A stretch of DNA of 64,000 bases, from positions 81,644 through 145,643 of the forward strand of contig CAZQYV010000001.1 in the NCBI GenBank assembly GCA_964597675.1. The letters run 5' to 3'. A model generated the notes under the pieces. The model was given only the letters and a program-made list of their open reading frames with translations. It was not told the origin of the DNA and searched no databases. Source of the stretch: an uncultured Candidatus Saccharibacteria bacterium (lineage in GTDB: Bacteria; Patescibacteriota; Minisyncoccia; Phycocordibacterales; DATDWN01). Positions 42,899 through 61,615 of this stretch are shown in pieces; the first letter of the stretch is position 1; each line of letters opens with the position of its first letter. Position numbers and translations under genes: made by a program.

Positions 42899-43834
42899 AT
42901 GACGACGATTACTCAAGCAACTTCCGGTCAGAAGAAACAGAATAGCCGTTTTCTCGAGGACGCCTTTCAGGCACTCAAAACGGAATTGGAAACCATGTTT
43001 GGTGAACTCGACACCGAGAACGCTCAACGATTCCTCGGTAACGGCGACGAATTCAAAGCCGATGTTCAGAAGGCAGCTCTCGACTCGTTCGGACGCCTGT
43101 CCATCTCGAATCAGTTCGCCAACGAAGAAGTGGAATCGACCTACGGCTACCTCTCGGGCTATCAGAAGCCGAAGGGATTGACCGAGCAGGCCAACCGCTT
43201 GCGTGAACTGTTCTCTGGTGCCGGTTTCGTCAACCTCGATCTGCAAGGCAGAATCGAGAAGGGTGAGATCGCACTGCCAGCATACGCCGAAGGTTGGTCC
43301 GTCATTCCCAACTGGATGAAGAATCCGGAGGCATGGGGCACCTACAACGAGGCACTGCAAAAAGTCCTTGACGCAATCAAGAAGACTCGCAACGGTGCCT
43401 TCTACAACTACCGCGAGGGTCAGATCGGTCCCGAGCGTCTGCGCCAAACGAAGCGTGCGGAGAAATTCTTCCGTGAGCTTTCGGAAGCACAAGGCAATCC
43501 GGATCTCTTAATCGTCCCGACCCAGTTCGGCATCCGCCATCGCGGCCGTTCGGTTCGCCGATCCCGCGAGGTTATGCTGGACAATGGCAACGAGTTCGGA
43601 CTCGGCGCATTCGCAATCGGCATCATGATCCTCGCCCATCCCGAGAGACTGAAAAACGTGGATGATCTGTGGATCGATTGTGCCGGAGACGAATATGCTC
43701 CGGGTGCCGGTGTTCGCTTCGATCGCGCTCCGTACTTCAACTTCAACGACGGCGGGGTCGGGTTCGACGCGGGGTGGACTGGCAGCGCGAGCGGCCGCTA
43801 TGGGTCTTCCTCCGCCTTCCTTCCGCAGCAGTGA
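42899..43834 (+). CDS. DGR target protein (311 aa), GC-rich, with the variable repeat at its C-terminus (C-type-lectin/FGE-like fold suspected); no signal peptide
   Basis: The C-terminus GAGVRFDRAPYFNFNDGGVGFDAGW matches the TR-encoded DADVRFDHAPYFNFNDGKVKFDTNW; ggaaagggag RBS. Confidence 0.7.
   Translation: MTTITQATSGQKKQNSRFLEDAFQALKTELETMFGELDTENAQRFLGNGDEFKADVQKAALDSFGRLSISNQFANEEVESTYGYLSGYQKPKGLTEQANRLRELFSGAGFVNLDLQGRIEKGEIALPAYAEGWSVIPNWMKNPEAWGTYNEALQKVLDAIKKTRNGAFYNYREGQIGPERLRQTKRAEKFFRELSEAQGNPDLLIVPTQFGIRHRGRSVRRSREVMLDNGNEFGLGAFAIGIMILAHPERLKNVDDLWIDCAGDEYAPGAGVRFDRAPYFNFNDGGVGFDAGWTGSASGRYGSSSAFLPQQ
43700..43800 (+). repeat. DGR variable repeat (VR)
   Basis: See the TR entry; the 3' third has diverged with non-adenine changes as well. 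Confidence 0.65.
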
Positions 43835-46107: not shown

Positions 46108-46136
46108 TTGACATGCAACCTATTTAGGTGTATAAT
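46108..46136 (+). promoter_or_regulatory. sigma70-like promoter (TTGACA, 17 nt spacer, TATAAT)
   Basis: ttgacatgcaacctatttaggtgtataat. Confidence 0.6.
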
Positions 46137-46149
46137 AGAATAGGAGGGT

Positions 46150-49741: not shown

Positions 49742-50377
49742 CTACTGGATGGAGAGACTCTTTAATATATCATTAAATATACTTTCAGATTTTGATGGAG
49801 AAATAACTCCGGGGACAGCAAGGACCTTGTCTCGAGCTTCCTTAACGATAGCCGAAGAAAGAGCCTGAATAGATGCCTGATTTATCACAAGTGTTTCTGT
49901 AGTGCCGGCAGGGAAATAGTAGGTGGTTTGGCCACACCCTTCTGCGCCCTCGTATATTGCAAAGCCAGATAGTTTGCCGATTTTGAATGTTTCAATAAAT
50001 CCAGGAGAGGAGACCAATTCATCATTTATAAAATTTTCTTGTGGAATGTACGGGCTTAGGGTGCGTACGGTGTCAGTTAGATTTTTTTGAATGATTCGAA
50101 TAGTGACATTGAAATCGGTCAATCGCTCGTATGTTTTTGTATCACCCATCATGTCGCATGCACCAGTATTGAGATAGGGGATATCGTGGTGGAGTGTAAC
50201 AACATCATCGGTGGTGTTGACCGAAAGTATTTTAGGATATGTAAAGCCGACACCAACACGAGCATTTCGGTATGTTCCGGTTGTTGAATTTGTAATCTGG
50301 GTTTTTCCTTTTTTGAAATACCACAAGCCTCCGAGAATGATAATGCAGATTGCAATAATGATGTACGTTCGTTTCAT
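49742..50377 (-). CDS. hypothetical secreted or membrane-anchored protein
   Basis: Start assigned at MKRTYIIIAICIIILGG (signal anchor). Confidence 0.45.
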   Translation of the reverse strand: MKRTYIIIAICIIILGGLWYFKKGKTQITNSTTGTYRNARVGVGFTYPKILSVNTTDDVVTLHHDIPYLNTGACDMMGDTKTYERLTDFNVTIRIIQKNLTDTVRTLSPYIPQENFINDELVSSPGFIETFKIGKLSGFAIYEGAEGCGQTTYYFPAGTTETLVINQASIQALSSAIVKEARDKVLAVPGVISPSKSESIFNDILKSLSIQ

Positions 50378-50433
50378 ACCCAGAGTATACCACATCACCT
50401 TTTTTGGGTTATGTGGATAGTATTTTAGACAAA

Positions 50434-50462
50434 CAAAATCCGCCCTCCACCGGATTTTGTTG
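50434..50462. terminator. bidirectional hairpin terminator
   Basis: aaaatccg-ccctccac-cggatttt. Confidence 0.6.
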
Positions 50463-50503
50463 CCCGATGTTGGGCGGTAATCGAACAACTCAGACTGTTT
50501 GAG

Positions 50504-50758
50504 TCATTGCTTGTGGACTCCTTTCTTCGGTAGTCTTTTCAGGAGACCTTCGATTTCAGCGATGTTCCTCACGTGTGGCAGTGTCTTGCTGAGAAAATCC
50601 CTCTCAACTTCTTCAACCGCCGTGAGTGTTCGAGGTGGAATCATGCAGTGGGCGCAGTTAAGTTCTGCCAACCGCAATACTTTTTTGTGTACTTCTGGGA
50701 GTCGCGACTCCCTTCTTTTTATTGCGACGAACTTTTTGATGTCTGTTCGGACACTCAT
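50504..50758 (-). CDS. GC-rich hypothetical protein (84 aa) with its own promoter, RBS and terminator
   Basis: Minus-strand promoter ttgacaagaaagtgatttgggtgtataat at 50821-50849; RBS aggaaaggag. Confidence 0.5.
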   Translation of the reverse strand: MSVRTDIKKFVAIKRRESRLPEVHKKVLRLAELNCAHCMIPPRTLTAVEEVERDFLSKTLPHVRNIAEIEGLLKRLPKKGVHKQ

Positions 50759-50852
50759 CAAAGAACTCCTTTCCTAACTCTCGGTTCACCAATTTCCTCT
50801 AGGATGTTATTTACAATTGTATTATACACCCAAATCACTTTCTTGTCAACCA

Positions 50853-50920
50853 TTTTTCGAGTACAAAAAAGTCCTATTTCTAGGTGAAATTTGGGGGTAG
50901 TGGTGGCAGTTCGGCCTTCG
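50853..50920 (+). repeat. about 65 nt direct repeat, copy 1; copy 2 is at 51660-51727; the pair flanks the NYN-domain gene
   Basis: tttttcgagtacaaaaaag[t/c]cctatttctaggtg...ggggtagtgg[t/c]ggcagttcg. Confidence 0.6.
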
Positions 50921-51090
50921 CTATCTTGTCGATAAAATAAAAAGTAAAGCCCGCACCGAGTGCGAACTGTATTATTGTGAGCGGGGTATAAAATTTAAGC
51001 ATAAAAATGACGTCGACGGCCTAAATACAAAATACATCCAAATTAAGTATAGTTGTTGTTTAACATGAGCTTTTTGATATTATTATCATA

Positions 51091-51519
51091 ATGAAAAAGG
51101 AAAACAATCTAGCTTTCATAGATGGAGCAAATCTTCATATGGGTGTGACTTCTCTTGGTATTAAGTTAGATTATAAAAAATTTAGAGTATGGTTAACAGA
51201 TAAATTTTCAGTTTATACTGCATACATTTTTCTCGGAAATATTCCAAAATATTCAAATCTTTACGTCCATCTTCAAGAATCAGGATACAGAATAATTTTT
51301 AAGGAAGTTGTTTATGATGGAAATGGAAAAGCAAAAGGGAATTGCGATGCAGACTTAGTTTTAAAAACAGTTCAGTGGTTTTACGAAAATGAATATGATA
51401 ATGCTGTTATTGTTTCAAGTGATGGTGACTATGCTTCACTTGTAAATTTTTTGATTGATAAAAATAAACTAAGAGCTGTCGTTTCTCCTTCCGACGAAAA
51501 AAATGTTCCGTCTTACTAA
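51091..51519 (+). CDS. NYN/LabA-like (PIN-like) domain protein
   Basis: LAFIDGANL N-terminus and acidic residues typical of the NYN domain. Confidence 0.6.
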   Translation: MKKENNLAFIDGANLHMGVTSLGIKLDYKKFRVWLTDKFSVYTAYIFLGNIPKYSNLYVHLQESGYRIIFKEVVYDGNGKAKGNCDADLVLKTVQWFYENEYDNAVIVSSDGDYASLVNFLIDKNKLRAVVSPSDEKNVPSY

Positions 51520-51775
51520 AAAGAACAAAAGCTAAAATTTATTATTTGAAAGATAAGAAAAATACACTTACATAAAAAAAGACCCCCAATGAAGACGAGC
51601 TTCACAAGGGTTCTTTTCGTAGTGATATTAAAAGTATATCAAACTGTTCGTGAATGTCAAATAAATATTTTTCGAGTACAAAAAAGCCCTATTTCTAGGT
51701 GTTGTTTAGGGGTAGTGGCGGCAGTTCGCCCTTTGCCTTAAAATTTTCTCGTCAGAAAATTTAATATTGTGGGAG

Positions 51776-52045
51776 TTATGGTTGTTTAGTTTCTAATCCG
51801 AGATTGAATTTTTCTATAAGCATTTCTTTCTTTTCTCGTCTCCATTTTTTGATTTGTATTTCTCTCTGTCTGGCATGAGCAAGTGTTTCATATTTTTCTA
51901 AAAAGACAATTTGGAGGTTATGTTTTATTTTTGTGAAGTTGGATCCTCTTTTTTCATTATGATAAAGAACTCGTTGCTTTGGGTTTTTAGTGATACCTAC
52001 ATACAAAATATTATCAGGGTTTTTGATCATGTATACGAAAAACAT
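51776..52045 (-). CDS. small GIY-YIG domain nuclease
   Basis: YMIKNPDNILYVGITKNPKQRVLYHN GIY-YIG signature. Confidence 0.7.
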   Translation of the reverse strand: MFFVYMIKNPDNILYVGITKNPKQRVLYHNEKRGSNFTKIKHNLQIVFLEKYETLAHARQREIQIKKWRREKKEMLIEKFNLGLETKQP

Positions 52046-52067
52046 AAATTAATTATAACAAAAGCTG

Positions 52068-52090
52068 CCAAAGGCAGCTTTTGTGTGTTA
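52068..52090. terminator. perfect palindromic terminator downstream of the tmRNA
   Basis: aaaagctgcc-aaa-ggcagctttt. Confidence 0.6.
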
Positions 52091-52193
52091 ATACAGTCCC
52101 TCGAATCCCTCGGGACACTCGACTCGTAAGTACCATCTTGTTTTTAGGTGGTTTACCACGAGCGAGTTCCAAGTAATCTTGGGACGAGTCGAG

Positions 52194-52588
52194 TGGAAGT
52201 GGCGGCATCGAAGCCGCGTCCATAGAAGGAACTAAAATGTGTCTACAGCGTGTAGTTTGTTTTATATTTAATCATCTATACTATGTAACAAACAAAATGT
52301 ATAAGTGACGATTCTCAATGTTTCAAACGATGAGTCGAGACACACCCATGTTCTAGCTAAAAATATATCAATCAACCTCCCGTATTAGCGTCAGGGAAGC
52401 GACCGTCTCCTTGGCGTCGGCTTATGCTCGAGCGAAAGAGAAAGCAAAGTCATTCATACTAAAGTATGGTGATGTTGCTTTTGAAGCTACAGTATTTGCA
52501 TGTAGGCTTTTCTGTACCGTTTTAGGAGAGCACAGAACTCCGCGTTGCGCAGATCAATTCTTTTCTATGTCAAAACCTGTCACCCCCG
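52194..52588 (-). ncRNA. ssrA: tmRNA (ssrA), one-piece, about 395 nt
   Basis: Immediately downstream of smpB; the 5' GGGGGTG pairs with the 3' CACTTCC-A giving a G3-U70 wobble and an A73 discriminator; T-arm GCGGC-TTCGAT-GCCGC; candidate tag frame from about nt 88 ending ...NDFAFSFARA-stop; the exact tag start is unresolved. Confidence 0.6.
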
Positions 52589-52694
52589 CAAAATGTGCCT
52601 GCCATGGAAGGCAGTTGCAGATTTTCGCGTCCCGATACCACCCGTGTAGGGTGGTAGAGGGGCAGACGTACTTTGCGCGAAGCAGGTTTTGGTG

Positions 52695-53138
52695 TCAACG
52701 AACTTTGTGCTCTCGGTCTATATCGCGATCGCTCTGTCGTTTCTTGAGTGTCTCTCGTTTATCAAACTTCTTTTTACCACGGACAATAGCAATATCTACC
52801 TTGATCTTTGTACCCTTATTATACACCGAAATAGGTACAATTGTCAAGCCCTTTGTTTTCTCTGCTGTCTCAAGATCGAGGATCTCATTTTTCTTGAGTA
52901 GCAGTCGGCGATTACGATATGGGTCATAGTCAATTGGGGTGTTGTTTTCTTGGTAGGGTGGTATGAACATGTTGGTAACAAAGGCCTCTGTACCACGGAC
53001 TGTGACTCGGGCACCTTCGAGTGACCCCTGACTTCCCTTGAGGGATTTTACTTCATGACCAAAAAGCTCTATTCCTGCGGGATAGGTTTCCATTATTTCG
53101 TAATTCATGCCGGTCTTTCGGTTTGTAATGAGTGCCAT
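52695..53138 (-). CDS. smpB: SsrA-binding protein SmpB
   Basis: SmpB family, 147 aa. Confidence 0.9.
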   Translation of the reverse strand: MALITNRKTGMNYEIMETYPAGIELFGHEVKSLKGSQGSLEGARVTVRGTEAFVTNMFIPPYQENNTPIDYDPYRNRRLLLKKNEILDLETAEKTKGLTIVPISVYNKGTKIKVDIAIVRGKKKFDKRETLKKRQSDRDIDREHKVR

Positions 53139-56067: not shown

Positions 56068-56141
56068 GCGCGTGTAGCTCAGTTGGTTAGAGCTCGGAGC
56101 TTATACCTCCGTGGCCGGGGGTTCGAGTCCCTCCACGCGCA
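56068..56141 (+). tRNA. tRNA-Ile with anticodon UAU (reads AUA)
   Basis: Cloverleaf: acceptor GCGCGTG/CACGCGC, D stem GCTC/GAGC, anticodon stem CGGAG/CTCCG with loop CTTATAC, T arm GGGGG-TTCGAGT-CCCTC. Confidence 0.7.
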
Positions 56142-56145
56142 CAAG

Positions 56146-59170: not shown

Positions 59171-59340
59171 ATTTCTATTGTACCATGAAGGATCTTCTTT
59201 TTTGATTTTGCTTTCATGAAATACGAGACATGTGTATATCAATGTGTGTCAATGGAGGCACTTGACAGAAAGGGGGTGAGTATGGTAGGGTGCGGGTGCT
59301 GTTCTTTACAGTAAATCCAAAGTTAGAGGAGGGGACAAAG

Positions 59341-59886
59341 ATGAAGATCTTTTCCCGTTTTTCCATTTTCGTGCTCATCCTTGTGGTGAGCATCATGATT
59401 GTTCCAGCATCGGCGGCGACCTTGTGGTCGCAGCAGTGGGACTCGACCCCGGCATTTCCGGGGACGTTCAATCGGATAGAAATCGCAATGGGTGCTGGTG
59501 GTGGCCAGTTTGGCGGGCCTCTCTCGGGCTTTACGACAGGCTCCGGATGGGTAACCACTTTTGATCCTTATTTTGTGACGGCTACGTCGGCGACCACAAT
59601 GAACGGGTCACCCGGTACCGATAATCTCTGGGATATCAATTTCGGCACGCCTTTGAATCAGCCCCTCGCTGTTCAACTCAAGTTCTATATGGACACAGAG
59701 TTGAAGTCCACCGACACGTGGGGATACGATGGTTTGGGACAGGGCAATAACCCTGTCGGGAACTGGCACCACCTCTCCAATGATGGGTTCCAAGGTGTAC
59801 CTGAGCCAAGCACCTACGCGCTGATGGGCGCAGGTCTCGCGGCGCTGAGTTTCATTCGCCGTCGTCGGCAAACAGCCGGCAAATAG
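59341..59886 (+). CDS. PEP-CTERM sorting-signal protein, GC-rich
   Basis: Signal peptide, Gly-rich body, C-terminal VPEPSTYALMGAGLAALSFIRRRRQ; RBS agaggagggg. Confidence 0.65.
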   Translation: MKIFSRFSIFVLILVVSIMIVPASAATLWSQQWDSTPAFPGTFNRIEIAMGAGGGQFGGPLSGFTTGSGWVTTFDPYFVTATSATTMNGSPGTDNLWDINFGTPLNQPLAVQLKFYMDTELKSTDTWGYDGLGQGNNPVGNWHHLSNDGFQGVPEPSTYALMGAGLAALSFIRRRRQTAGK

Positions 59887-59949
59887 TTCGTTCGTCCGTC
59901 TCCATGGTGGGAGACAAAAAATAAAGCGGATCCGCATGGGTCCGCTTTT

Positions 59950-60669
59950 TCAGTGGGGGAGATTGCTATTAGATCTAACAAAATTCCTAATACAGCGACT
60001 ATTTTTAAAATTTTCTACAATTCGTCTTATGGTTTCCGATGATGTTGTCTCTTTTACATAATTTGTCACATATGTTTTGTTTGTAACTTGTATGTTTCCA
60101 GTATTATTCATCATAAGTGCGAGCAAATAGTCTTCAGGATTACGGCTTAATCCAATCTCTCGGGAATATAGAATACTATCTTGATATATTTTTACAATTT
60201 TATCTTTGTCTTTTAACCAGAAAGCAAAACTTGGTCCCCATATCCAAGACGTCGCTTTTTCATTTTCTGAAACACATATGTATTTATTAAATATGTTTAA
60301 AATATAACAAAGATTAGTGCCTTTAAATTTTATCCAAGACCCAACCAATATATTTTCATTACGCGTGAGTGTTGCCACCATCACTTCAACCCAATTATTT
60401 TTTGCGAAGGAATCTCCGTCGATGCAGAGCACGATATCTCCGGTGACATGGCGAATTCCTTCAATCCGTGCAGGAACGATGCCAGTGGCTCCTGCAAAGG
60501 GGATAACAGTAATATGGAATTTACTCGCAATTTCCACGGTCTTGTCTGTACAGTTGTGTGCGATAAGGATTACCTCATCTGCCTTTTTAGTCTGGTTGAG
60601 GATTGATCGAATACATTGTTCAATGTGAGTTTCTTCATTATGAGCAATGATTAGGATAGAGATTTTCAT
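59950..60669 (-). CDS. family 2 glycosyltransferase
   Basis: SILIIAHNEE...DGD motif pattern of GT2. Confidence 0.65.
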   Translation of the reverse strand: MKISILIIAHNEETHIEQCIRSILNQTKKADEVILIAHNCTDKTVEIASKFHITVIPFAGATGIVPARIEGIRHVTGDIVLCIDGDSFAKNNWVEVMVATLTRNENILVGSWIKFKGTNLCYILNIFNKYICVSENEKATSWIWGPSFAFWLKDKDKIVKIYQDSILYSREIGLSRNPEDYLLALMMNNTGNIQVTNKTYVTNYVKETTSSETIRRIVENFKNSRCIRNFVRSNSNLPH

Positions 60670-60699: not shown

Positions 60700-61430
60700 T
60701 TTTGAGTAGGAGAGAGCGAGAATTTTTGCCTCGAAATTTTCAATTTCGTCAAAAGGAGCGAGAGTTTCTCACTCGACTTAAAAATTTCTCGTCAGAAATT
60801 TTTAGTCTGTGCACTGACTCGCGTCCTGCTTTTGCTAAAGCAGGAATCGCTCCGTCGTTCGAATCTCGACACAATCTGCTAACAGCAGATTGTTCTCTCT
60901 CCGTAAACAAAAAGCGCCTTTCGGGATTTTGTTGGCGGAGAGAGCGAGAGTTTCTCCTACAATTTTTTCTCGTCGCCACTCGAAAAAATTCTAGGCGCCA
61001 GATGTGCGACAAACTCTGCTAAGTTTGTAGACCGCACATCTGTTCGAATCTCGCGCGCATAGCTTCGCTTTGCTTCTCTCCGCAAAAAGAAAACCCGTTT
61101 CGGGGTCCTTTTTGCGGAGAGAGCGAGATTCGAACTCGCGGTTCCAATTAAGGAACGACGGTTTAGTAAACCGTTGATTTAAACCACTCATCCATCTCTC
61201 CATATACTCGCTATGCTCGAATGGAGCTGCTTTCGCAGATCGATGGATTCGTGGTCGGTGATTACACCGGCTCGGTGTGAAGTAGTTCACACCATCGCCC
61301 ATCTCATCCATCTCTCTGTATACTCACCTGAACATTAGGAATATAGCATTTTTCTGTGGATTGATAAAGTTTTTTTGCGGAGACGGGGAGAGTTTCTGCC
61401 TCGAAATTTTCAATTCCGTCAAATTGAAAA
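60700..61430. repeat. tRNA-fragment repeat region: three copies of a tRNA 3'-end core (gcggagagagcgaga and gcggagacggggaga classes), each followed by gtttctgcctcgaaattttcaatt[c/t]cgtcaaa-type flanks, plus a partial duplicate of the 5' end of the 61115-61201 tRNA
   Basis: Copies at 60708-60752, 60945-60990, 61377-61424 and 61290-61318. Confidence 0.6.
61115..61201 (-). tRNA. type II (long variable arm) Ser-like tRNA with apparent anticodon ACU
   Basis: Acceptor GGAGAGA/TCTCTCC, G73 discriminator, anticodon stem ACGGT/ACCGT with loop TTACTAA, variable arm GTTCC/GGAAC, T arm GCGAG-TTCGAAT-CTCGC. Confidence 0.55.
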
Positions 61431-61525
61431 TTTCTGGCCACCGGTTTGTCGACAAGCCCTGCTGGGCTAGTAAACCGACAAACCGTTCGAATCTCCCACG
61501 TAAAGCTTCGCTTTACTCGTTCCTG

Positions 61526-61615
61526 CGGAGACGGGGAGATTCGAACTCCCGAGGCCTTTTAAAGGGCCTGCCTCTTTAGCAAAGAGGTACGTTAGACCAC
61601 TCTGACACGTCTCCA
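61526..61615 (-). tRNA. tRNA-Ser (GCU)
   Basis: Acceptor GGAGACG/CGTCTCC, G73, anticodon stem CCTCT/AGAGG with loop TTGCTAA, long variable arm AGGCC/GGCCT, T arm GGGAG-TTCGAAT-CTCCC. Confidence 0.75.

Follow-up and report, generated by a model that had tools for sequence, protein, structure and literature searches.

In the 64,000-nucleotide (nt) stretch of an uncultured Candidatus Saccharibacteria contig analysed here (the window), the transfer-messenger RNA (tmRNA) gene ssrA is followed directly by a conserved structured element of about 100 nt, which we call T3E, and by a small gene for a stand-alone GIY-YIG nuclease of the bacterial Slx1-like (UPF0213) family. We hold, with moderate confidence, that T3E and the GIY-YIG gene together (T3E-GIY) constitute a selfish, nuclease-driven insertion module of tRNA and tmRNA 3' ends. 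The flank of the tmRNA gene is a site where tiny cassettes accumulate. As far as Rfam 15 and the searchable literature go, the module appears to be undescribed; literature searches (GIY-YIG with tmRNA or tRNA genes, UPF0213/YhbQ, COG2827, the element sequence, Parcubacteria) returned no description of T3E. It is this module that makes the locus worth following up, the tmRNA itself being an ordinary family member with a clade-specific T-loop variant. The features at the core of the locus are the following.

52194-52587, minus strand: standard one-piece tmRNA (ssrA), called at 52193-52587 by ARAGORN and at 52191-52587 by Rfam (RF00023)
52096-52195, minus strand: T3E, conserved structured element of about 100 nt, directly abutting the tmRNA 3' end (covariance model R1, 88.4 bits, E 2.9e-16)
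52195-52186, minus strand: T3E strand P1a, CACTCGACTC
52185-52166, minus strand: T3E hairpin P2
52165-52148, minus strand: T3E invariant block, TCGCTCGTGGTAAACCAC
52125-52116, minus strand: T3E strand P1b, GAGTCGAGTG
52116-52096, minus strand: T3E hairpin P5, GTCCC..GGGAC
52060-52082, minus strand: terminator-like hairpin, AAAAGCTGCC-TTT-GGCAGCTTTT (by folding)
51776-52045, minus strand: stand-alone GIY-YIG nuclease gene, 89 amino acids (PF01541, 1.5e-15; UPF0213/bacterial Slx1-like family)
51709-51728, minus strand: decayed displaced tmRNA 3' end (T loop to acceptor), CGAACTGCCGCCACTACCCC (repeat search; local alignment p < 0.003)

The 147 nt 3' of the tmRNA folded at -54.7 kcal/mol, with a z score of -6.4 against shuffled sequences. 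An initial annotation of the window had described a hairpin-rich trailer at this position, which was correct as to the folding; rather than mere hairpins, the trailer is an element that is conserved and linked to the GIY-YIG gene. The terminator, placed by that annotation at 52068-52090, is indeed a hairpin and lies close by, at 52082-52060. In its general layout T3E runs from CCA through CTCGACTC, a variable P2, TCGCTCGTGGYAARCCA, an optional terminator-like hairpin P4 and GAGTCGAGTG to P5 (YCCY-GAGCG...GTCGA-RGGR). In the consensus helix P1, the CA of CCA together with CTCGACTC is paired with GAGTCGAGTG, and the pairing reaches the last two bases of the tRNA-type gene. The element is rich in inverted CTCGAC/GTCGAG motifs.

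The window was compared with 80 relative loci centred on SmpB, the tmRNA partner protein (L-numbers). T3E has a patchy distribution among them: the covariance model detected it in 5 of the 80 loci and in the window (6/81), always at the tmRNA 3' end. The loci L005, L010, L053 and L078, in which it recurs after the tmRNA, are exactly those with a GIY-YIG homologue (5'-truncated in L005). A scan of metagenome contigs with an exact 17-mer core pattern of T3E yielded about 50 full elements, on contigs with G + C contents of 0.31-0.71. Wherever ARAGORN called a gene, the element started 0-1 nt past tRNA-Leu, Ala, Val, Tyr, Phe, Ile or tmRNA. In this sample its position is almost exclusively the 3' end of a tRNA or tmRNA gene. 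The six pattern matches in viral contigs included no real element by the covariance model. Rfam searches of 50700-52250 of the window (E <= 10) gave nothing relevant, the Phe leader and enterobacterial small RNA matches at permissive E being dismissed as terminator look-alikes, and in seven other T3E-bearing loci (E <= 0.1) only tmRNA and tRNA were found.

The predicted structure was supported by two alignments. In A2 (24 sequences) 92.8% of the cells were paired, against a shuffled mean of 86.7% and 33-43% with slid partners; none of 500 shuffles reached the observed value, and seven pairs, in P2 and P5, had compensatory changes. A3 (49 sequences) gave 93.6% against 85.1% for the shuffled mean and 29-45% for slid partners (0/500 shuffles), with 12 compensatory pairs in P1, P2 and P5; this alignment was fitted to the model and its counts lean towards structure. 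The change in P1 was seen in L208 and L211, where CCA is followed by TTCGACTC, paired with GAGTCGAATG: the first base after CCA is T and its P1b partner is A. Loci selected by protein similarity also gave variants in blocks which the pattern scan had forced to be invariant. G-U was far commoner than A-C in P1 and P3, and therefore the tRNA-sense strand is the folding strand.

Some structural candidates were rejected. Hairpin P3 (GTGG-YAAR-CCAC) had no compensatory change, and the variants in L208, L209 and L211 alter one strand only. By eye, the hammerhead core motif is absent from T3E and the strand order of a hepatitis delta virus (HDV)-like ribozyme fits only partly; no Rfam ribozyme model matched. 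Separately, a solo P5-type hairpin, GCCCTGAGCGAACGTAGTGAGTCGAATGGGC, is present in reversed orientation between smpB and the tmRNA at L067:7711-7765 (minus strand), where the rest of T3E and the GIY-YIG gene are absent. Tandem or extra P5-type hairpins were also seen in L096, L180 and L173, and this hairpin may spread alone, like a repetitive extragenic palindromic (REP) sequence.

The GIY-YIG protein contains the GIY/YIG tyrosines, the Arg and the Glu (FVY..YVG..R..E). In the PDB it matched 1YWL (7.5e-9) and 1ZG2 (1.9e-4), both of which have been classed in the bacterial Slx1-like lineage (PMC1564403). An extended -10 box, TGTTATAAT (52060-52052), overlapped by the 3' end of the terminator-like hairpin, lies 6 nt before the ATG, and the same geometry (TGnTAnAAT-6/7 nt-ATG) was found in L053 and L078; the gene is predicted to be leaderless, with its own promoter downstream of T3E. 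A protein search with the GIY-YIG sequence gave 488 homologues, and those with a source name were Patescibacteria.

The linkage between the element and the gene was seen from both sides. A GIY-YIG open reading frame (ORF) lay 89-282 nt downstream, on the same strand, in 32 of 52 T3E elements; four were cut by contig ends and about 16 were solo. In the reversed test, six GIY-YIG homologues on long contigs were picked by protein similarity alone, ignoring the DNA context. All six were in the order smpB-tmRNA-T3E-GIY, with different other neighbours, and no integrase-family Pfam match was listed among the called genes of these six loci. In the loci examined, this GIY-YIG subfamily was invariably at tmRNA or tRNA 3' ends. 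In another genome of this order (L211:5258-5294 and L212:2840-2876) a NYN-domain gene is present about 2.4 kb downstream of the GIY-YIG gene, a neighbourhood that recalls the window.

Relatives that lack the insertion, with which the initial annotation had proposed to compare the locus, were available. L010 carries T3E and the GIY-YIG gene, L003 carries neither, and the downstream genes are common to both. In L010, 9 nt after the GIY-YIG stop codon, the final 19 nt of the tmRNA are repeated in slightly decayed form, CGATACACACCATCTCCAC, and then comes the terminator which in L003 directly follows the tmRNA. The fossil in the window, CGAACTGCCGCCACTACCCC, is located 52 nt after the GIY-YIG stop codon, corresponds to CGA-TGCCGCCACTTCCAC of the tmRNA (p < 0.003) and has a weak terminator, then a promoter, behind it. 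The T3E-GIY insertion has its right border at this fossil. L208 has TCCCGTAATCTCCA 12 nt after the stop codon, followed by a palindromic native-type terminator, and similar displaced 3' fragments were found in L139, L128, L118 (tRNA-Val) and L156. Thus, a decayed original tmRNA 3' end was present in at least four loci (window, L010, L208 and L156), in most of them followed by a native terminator. These fossils were detected by local alignment limited to the 200 nt after the GIY-YIG stop codon; an ungapped 16-mer scan was too crude, since true cases with indels scored as noise. In L078 and L063, only the tmRNA aligns. Presence and absence at the same site among relatives was seen for L003 versus L010, for L004 and L024 (empty, or nearly so) and for the window versus L217. 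Given the filled and empty pair and the decayed copies of the 3' end, T3E-GIY is an insertion, and because the original tmRNA 3' end persists as a decayed copy, the insertion brought a new 3' end and trailer in its place.

Downstream of this border, the window contains a second set of features, listed here with the flanking genes.

51667-51736, minus strand: repeat copy A, tmRNA remnant plus native flank, with weak terminator CCTAGAAATAGG-T6
51660-51633, minus strand: promoter TTGACA-16-TATACT after copy A
51091-51519, plus strand: NYN-domain (LabA-like) gene between the repeat copies, in opposite orientation, G + C content about 0.30 (PF01936, 2e-14; weak PADLOC NYN match, 4e-6)
50852-50921, minus strand: repeat copy B, 89% identical to copy A, tmRNA-like core at 50913-50893
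50849-50821, minus strand: perfect promoter TTGACA-17-TATAAT after copy B
50504-50761, minus strand: orphan ORF of 85 amino acids with a Shine-Dalgarno site
49742-50488, minus strand: hyp248, ORF of 248 amino acids
52695-53138, minus strand: smpB (PF01668, 1.2e-44), gene for the tmRNA partner protein

Pfam bore out the GIY-YIG and NYN genes named in the initial annotation. The direct repeats that it reported around the NYN gene are real, although their length and placement had to be corrected from 65 nt (50853-50920 and 51660-51727) to 70 nt (50852-50921 and 51667-51736). The two copies are 89% identical and are the only ones in the window, and none would be expected by chance. A weaker similarity between the copies fades over about 190 nt (51760-51564 on the A side), past the promoter and, it appears, as far as the opening codons of the 85-amino-acid ORF. 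By blastn, the repeat was absent from the 80 relatives. The tmRNA-derived cores (51728-51709 and 50913-50893) match positions 52209-52193 of the tmRNA; the repeats are the displaced tmRNA remnant with its native downstream flank, duplicated around the NYN gene. The 85-amino-acid ORF had no match in Pfam, NCBIfam, PADLOC or PHROGs and no homologue in the 80 relatives. NCBIfam, PADLOC and PHROGs gave nothing, or weak generic nuclease matches, for the GIY-YIG, NYN, 85-amino-acid and hyp248 proteins.

At 95-97% identity, the sister strain (L217/L218) shares the tmRNA-T3E-GIY-NYN layout of the window and differs from it by entire cassettes. In L217, an extra unit of 439 nt with a 103-amino-acid ORF is present inside the fossil after the GIY-YIG gene, flanked by TGCCACCA repeats. 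A gene for a secreted protein of 125 amino acids follows the copy-B promoter, and the place of the 85-amino-acid ORF is taken by an unrelated ORF of 79 amino acids between the same 5' untranslated region and terminator. Very small cassettes are thus stacked in the tmRNA flank, between sequences resembling the tmRNA end, and turn over fast.

The locus is an ordinary smpB-ssrA locus of a Patescibacteria (Paceibacteria-type) genome. The best relatives of its SmpB were 77-80% identical, and all relatives were Patescibacteria/Paceibacterota assemblies. smpB lies upstream of the tmRNA, with a gap of 108 nt, and many relatives have the order ftsH (opposite), smpB, tmRNA, a variable segment, hyp248, infC, rpmI, rplT, beta-CASP (opposite), ndk, map and adk. 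The gap from the tmRNA to hyp248/infC is essentially empty in L024 (126 nt) and L004 (244 nt) and extends up to about 2.6 kb elsewhere, with unrelated genes in each genome. In the window, the non-syntenic DNA is limited to about 50.76-52.19 kb and contains only the GIY-YIG gene, the NYN gene and the orphan ORF. The G + C content of the GIY/NYN stretch (50750-52000) is 0.30-0.34, against a window average of 0.41. A GC-rich cassette, which had also been reported, was not recovered, as 50500-50999 has a G + C content of 0.43-0.44, about the average of the window.

No integrase was found by Pfam search of the genes in the inserted segment. The earlier view of an integrative element at the tmRNA 3' end therefore holds for the variable insertion site and the att-type repeats (from synteny and the L217 cassettes) and fails for the integrase. 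An integrase of this island outside the window, as had been suggested, is unlikely because conserved housekeeping genes bound the inserted DNA on both sides, confining it to the segment given above.

Some further observations were made on neighbouring DNA. The true start of hyp248 probably lies later than called, as the gene of the sister strain was called at 217 amino acids; its first approximately 30 codons overlap a terminator-like hairpin (CCGCCC...GGGCGG-TTTTG) closing the upstream small ORF. Most of the 60 relatives scanned share with the window a tRNA-Ile with anticodon TAT (UAU) next to ftsH/smpB (56068-56142, plus strand, in the window); such a tRNA would be consistent with a decoding of AUA that needs no lysidine. 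A tRNA-Ser with anticodon ACT, hence A at position 34, adjoins tRNA-Ser(GCT) (61114-61201 and 61525-61614, both minus strand), and the same pair is found in L002, L018, L028 and L076. Bacterial A34 tRNAs other than Arg(ACG) are unusual. The G + C content is 0.52-0.57 at 43000-43750 and 59250-60000.

For the tmRNA, ARAGORN and Rfam agreed with the initial annotation on its position, on the minus strand between smpB and the terminator. The RF00023 score was 77.8 bits (gathering threshold 47; E 1.6e-28), covering model positions 1-374, the full length. In the acceptor, GGGGGTG/CACTTCC, seven of seven positions are paired when G-U is counted; the alanine identity elements G3-U70 and A73 could be read as described before, together with G4-U69, with the discriminator A73 at 52194. 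The 3' strand of the acceptor is CACTTCC in the window and CATCTCC in sister strain L217. CCA is not encoded in the window, where A73 is followed by CTC. A perfect promoter, TTGACA-18-TATAAT, is present inside the smpB ORF (52847-52818, minus strand), about 225 nt upstream of the tmRNA 5' end; its ACCTATTTnGGTGTATAAT box recurs at 46118-46137. ssrA may be transcribed from this promoter, in which case its 5' leader would be long.

The T arm, GCGGC-TTCGAT-GCCGC, has 5 bp, C-G closing and a loop of 6 nt, as the initial annotation had noticed, and appears with a 1-nt T-loop deletion in the Rfam alignment. Few RNA motifs are as conserved as the canonical T-loop fold. The tmRNA of the window departs from the canonical loop of 7 nt, while its model score and other features are those of a tmRNA; the short loop is a variant within the tmRNA family and does not exclude it from that family. 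A strict structural scan parsed 64 tmRNAs, of which 15 had a 6-nt loop TTCRAT with a 5-bp T stem (window, L001-L007, L009, L010, L012, L039, L045, L048 and L066) and 49 a 7-nt loop. All 15 short loops were closed by C-G or U-A, a compensatory change, whereas the 7-nt loops of relatives were closed by G-C or A-U. Because the 6-nt loop occurs in 15 assemblies with a covarying closing pair, it is real, no sequencing error and not unique to the genome of the window; it is a lineage trait. ARAGORN missed the tmRNA in L001, L002, L004, L005, L007 and L009, which all have the 6-nt loop, and Rfam detected it there at full length (73-96 bits). The tmRNA database paper reports introns in the T loop and islands at ssrA (PMC11915505), and its passages matching our search terms make no mention of a 6-nt T loop.

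The tag reads ANTVASKATSPYFSMNDFAFSFARA and starts with GCA at nt 89 of the gene; its frame of 25 codons and TAA covers nt 89-166 (ARAGORN). The usual end of a tmRNA tag is LAA or ALAA. The ARA end and the GCA start had been recognised earlier, but the end is atypical only outside the clade: L001 shares the last 16 residues, and ARA endings were also found in L009, L012, L039, L045, L048, L066, L020 and L023. Tags of this clade are long and end in ...AFSFARA, ...AFSYARA, ...AFAYARA or ...FAFARV, so that an ARA ending is normal for it. In many close relatives (L001, L003, L009, L010, L039, L045, L048 and L066) the resume codon is GUA (Val) instead of GCA (tmRNA nt ~85-90).

Native trailers were also compared. 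In 29 of 61 relatives, against 12% expected, the acceptor 3' strand of the tmRNA and the first trailer bases have an exact complement of 7-12 nt that lies 25-130 nt downstream. This pairing spans an A-tract/hairpin/T-tract (palindromic) terminator (e.g. in L035, L039, L048, L052, L058, L060, L066 and L077), and the complement co-varies with the acceptor sequence (L035 versus L058). It may be a feature of precursor processing or of att-site symmetry.

We propose that the tmRNA 3' end has been used repeatedly as an insertion site for very small cassettes. T3E-GIY would be a selfish unit, spread by its nuclease in the manner of the free-standing GIY-YIG homing genes beside phage tRNA genes. An empty gene would be cut by the nuclease within or close to its T arm and then repaired from a filled copy, and imprecise repair would leave duplicated 3' fragments behind. 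T3E would replace the native palindromic trailer/terminator, by which the host RNA would still be made correctly; it plausibly stands in for this trailer because P1 makes the same kind of pairing as the native trailers described above. The 70-nt repeats would have been formed when the remnant and the native flank were duplicated on arrival of the NYN cassette. Such is the route of cassette movement that we infer. The 6-nt T loop of the clade could conceivably be an allele that protects against T-loop-cutting elements. A bolder extension, which we put forward as tentative and rather doubtful, is that T3E-GIY represents an undescribed class of minimal mobile elements of about 0.4 kb, homing to tRNA and tmRNA 3' ends across several bacterial phyla, with a structured RNA, possibly a processing signal or a self-cleaving motif at the CCA junction, that keeps the invaded gene functional and a nuclease which, lacking a DNA-binding domain, finds its target by nucleic-acid structure.

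Several points weigh against a selfish module. The nuclease activity, target and mobility of T3E-GIY are proposals drawn from sequence. About 16 of the 52 T3E elements have no GIY-YIG gene. The protein is a catalytic core only (about 89 amino acids), has no DNA-binding domain and belongs to the Slx1-like/UPF0213 lineage, not to that of the homing endonucleases and UvrC (PMC1564403); with a bare catalytic core of this lineage, target recognition is unexplained. Identity among the GIY-YIG proteins (54-64%) roughly follows that of SmpB, and therefore there may have been vertical descent with many losses instead. Fossils were found in about a quarter of the GIY-bearing loci (6/24, and 1/6 in a second set: L208, p = 0.02), and the duplication of about 190 nt around the NYN gene is not expected from sequential insertion at the tmRNA end alone. 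In many T3E copies a terminator-like hairpin lies between P1a and P1b; P1 and P5 might thus not occur side by side in a single transcript, and T3E might act as RNA or as DNA. Finally, selection by an exact 17-mer biases the T3E sample towards close variants, and probably towards tmRNA-linked copies.

The alternative that survives best, although we consider it unlikely, is that the cassettes belong to integrase-mediated islands: decayed or att-flanked, they would be moved in trans by a tyrosine integrase elsewhere (on a phage or an integrative and conjugative element), T3E would be an att- or arm-type site and the GIY-YIG gene cargo. The cassettes are bounded by direct repeats from the tmRNA 3' end, the 439-nt cassette of L217 sits inside a secondary fossil site between TGCCACCA repeats, and the inverted CTCGAC/GTCGAG motifs of T3E would suit such a site. 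In addition, the tmRNA 3' end is a well-known integrase target, as noted in the matched passages of the tmRNA database paper (PMC11915505). However, the inserted segment is without an integrase, its conserved flanks rule out a larger island, and none of the six protein-picked loci lists an integrase-family Pfam match. The pairing and spacing of T3E and the GIY-YIG gene are far too constant for cargo, T3E shows covariation of the RNA type with G-U pairs on the sense strand, and it is absent from the viral contigs scanned.

Less probable still is an RNA-processing pair without mobility, in which T3E is the 3' trailer of the precursor and the GIY-YIG protein a nuclease or cofactor dedicated to the maturation or control of this end. 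T3E does lie flush with CCA or the discriminator, P1 does pair the last two bases, it is the sense strand that folds, and native trailers pair alike. COG4123 methyltransferase genes are repeatedly found beside Slx1-like GIY-YIG genes, and in one case the GIY-YIG gene is fused to that of a TrmH-like tRNA methyltransferase; from such methyltransferase links a role in RNA metabolism was suggested earlier for these bacterial proteins (PMC1564403). However, only 6 of 81 related smpB-tmRNA loci have T3E, and therefore it is not needed for tmRNA maturation. The fossil 3' ends and the filled and empty pair show insertion, the GIY-YIG gene has its own predicted leaderless promoter downstream of T3E, many T3E copies are without the gene, the GIY-YIG enzymes studied to date are known to cut DNA, and the roles described for the superfamily are in DNA cleavage only (PMC1564403). 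The last explanation, that the trailer is a terminator region, the repeats are chance or local duplications and the T-loop length is a sequencing or annotation artefact, is already refuted and has almost no probability left: terminator-like hairpins are present and many short repeat families in the window are chance matches, but about 50 unrelated contigs carry T3E, with blocks that hardly vary and with compensatory changes, the 6-nt loop is common to 15 independent assemblies with a covarying closing pair, and zero chance matches are expected for the 70-nt repeat.

A selfish T3E-GIY module would extend the known uses of tRNA and tmRNA genes by selfish DNA (integrases, group I introns and phage Seg nucleases), and would give the uncharacterised bacterial Slx1-like (UPF0213) proteins a first testable context. 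Single-gene cassettes turn over at the strain level here, in genomes that are usually held to be small and streamlined. Many of the tmRNAs with a 6-nt T loop in this Patescibacteria lineage escape ARAGORN, those of six of the closest relatives among them, and surveys could wrongly score the tmRNA as lacking. A viable 6-nt T loop in so widespread an RNA as tmRNA also offers a natural test case for the structure of tRNA mimics, for T-loop modification and for SmpB/EF-Tu binding.

Compared with the standard tmRNA (RF00023) and SmpB, the locus is alike in the full-length match, G3-U70, A73, the tag ORF and smpB immediately upstream. It is unlike in the 6-nt T loop with C-G closing and in the long tag ending in ARA, both traits of the clade. 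With tyrosine-integrase islands at tmRNA and tRNA 3' ends it shares the target, the direct repeats derived from the 3' end, the tandem accretion, the presence and absence at strain level and the AT-rich inserts; it differs in that no integrase was found here, that the units are single-gene and 0.4-0.8 kb, and that the first unit is always T3E with the GIY-YIG gene. Group I introns that interrupt the T loop of tmRNA genes, some of which carry homing endonuclease genes, are likewise mobile elements exploiting the T-loop region of ssrA, according to the matched passages of PMC11915505; in contrast, the tmRNA of the window is uninterrupted, the element comes after the gene, and no Rfam group I intron model matched. 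The stand-alone Slx1-like GIY-YIG proteins (UPF0213; 1YWL, 1ZG2) resemble that of the window in sequence family, size and single-domain architecture, and the family has a link to tRNA enzymes (PMC1564403), whereas the literature found does not place them at tRNA or tmRNA 3' ends or with a T3E-like element.

The remaining comparison is with SegB of phages T4 and T6, a GIY-YIG gene among phage tRNA genes whose product cuts inside these genes at RAWTSGAAC, with tandem duplications by microhomology (PMC13096335). By our own reading of this motif, it would be the reverse complement of T-arm sequence. In the protein of the window, the catalytic domain of a Seg-like homing endonuclease is present (PF01541) and the DNA-binding module is not: unlike SegB, it has 89 amino acids, has no C-terminal DNA-binding module and is of the Slx1-like/UPF0213 lineage. 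The module is chromosomal in bacteria and was not found in the viral contigs scanned, and its gene is coupled to a conserved structured element, which the Seg literature found does not mention. The two systems are alike in that a GIY-YIG gene of patchy distribution lies beside tRNA-type genes, and the displaced fragments at our loci begin in or near the T arm, with a duplicated flank.

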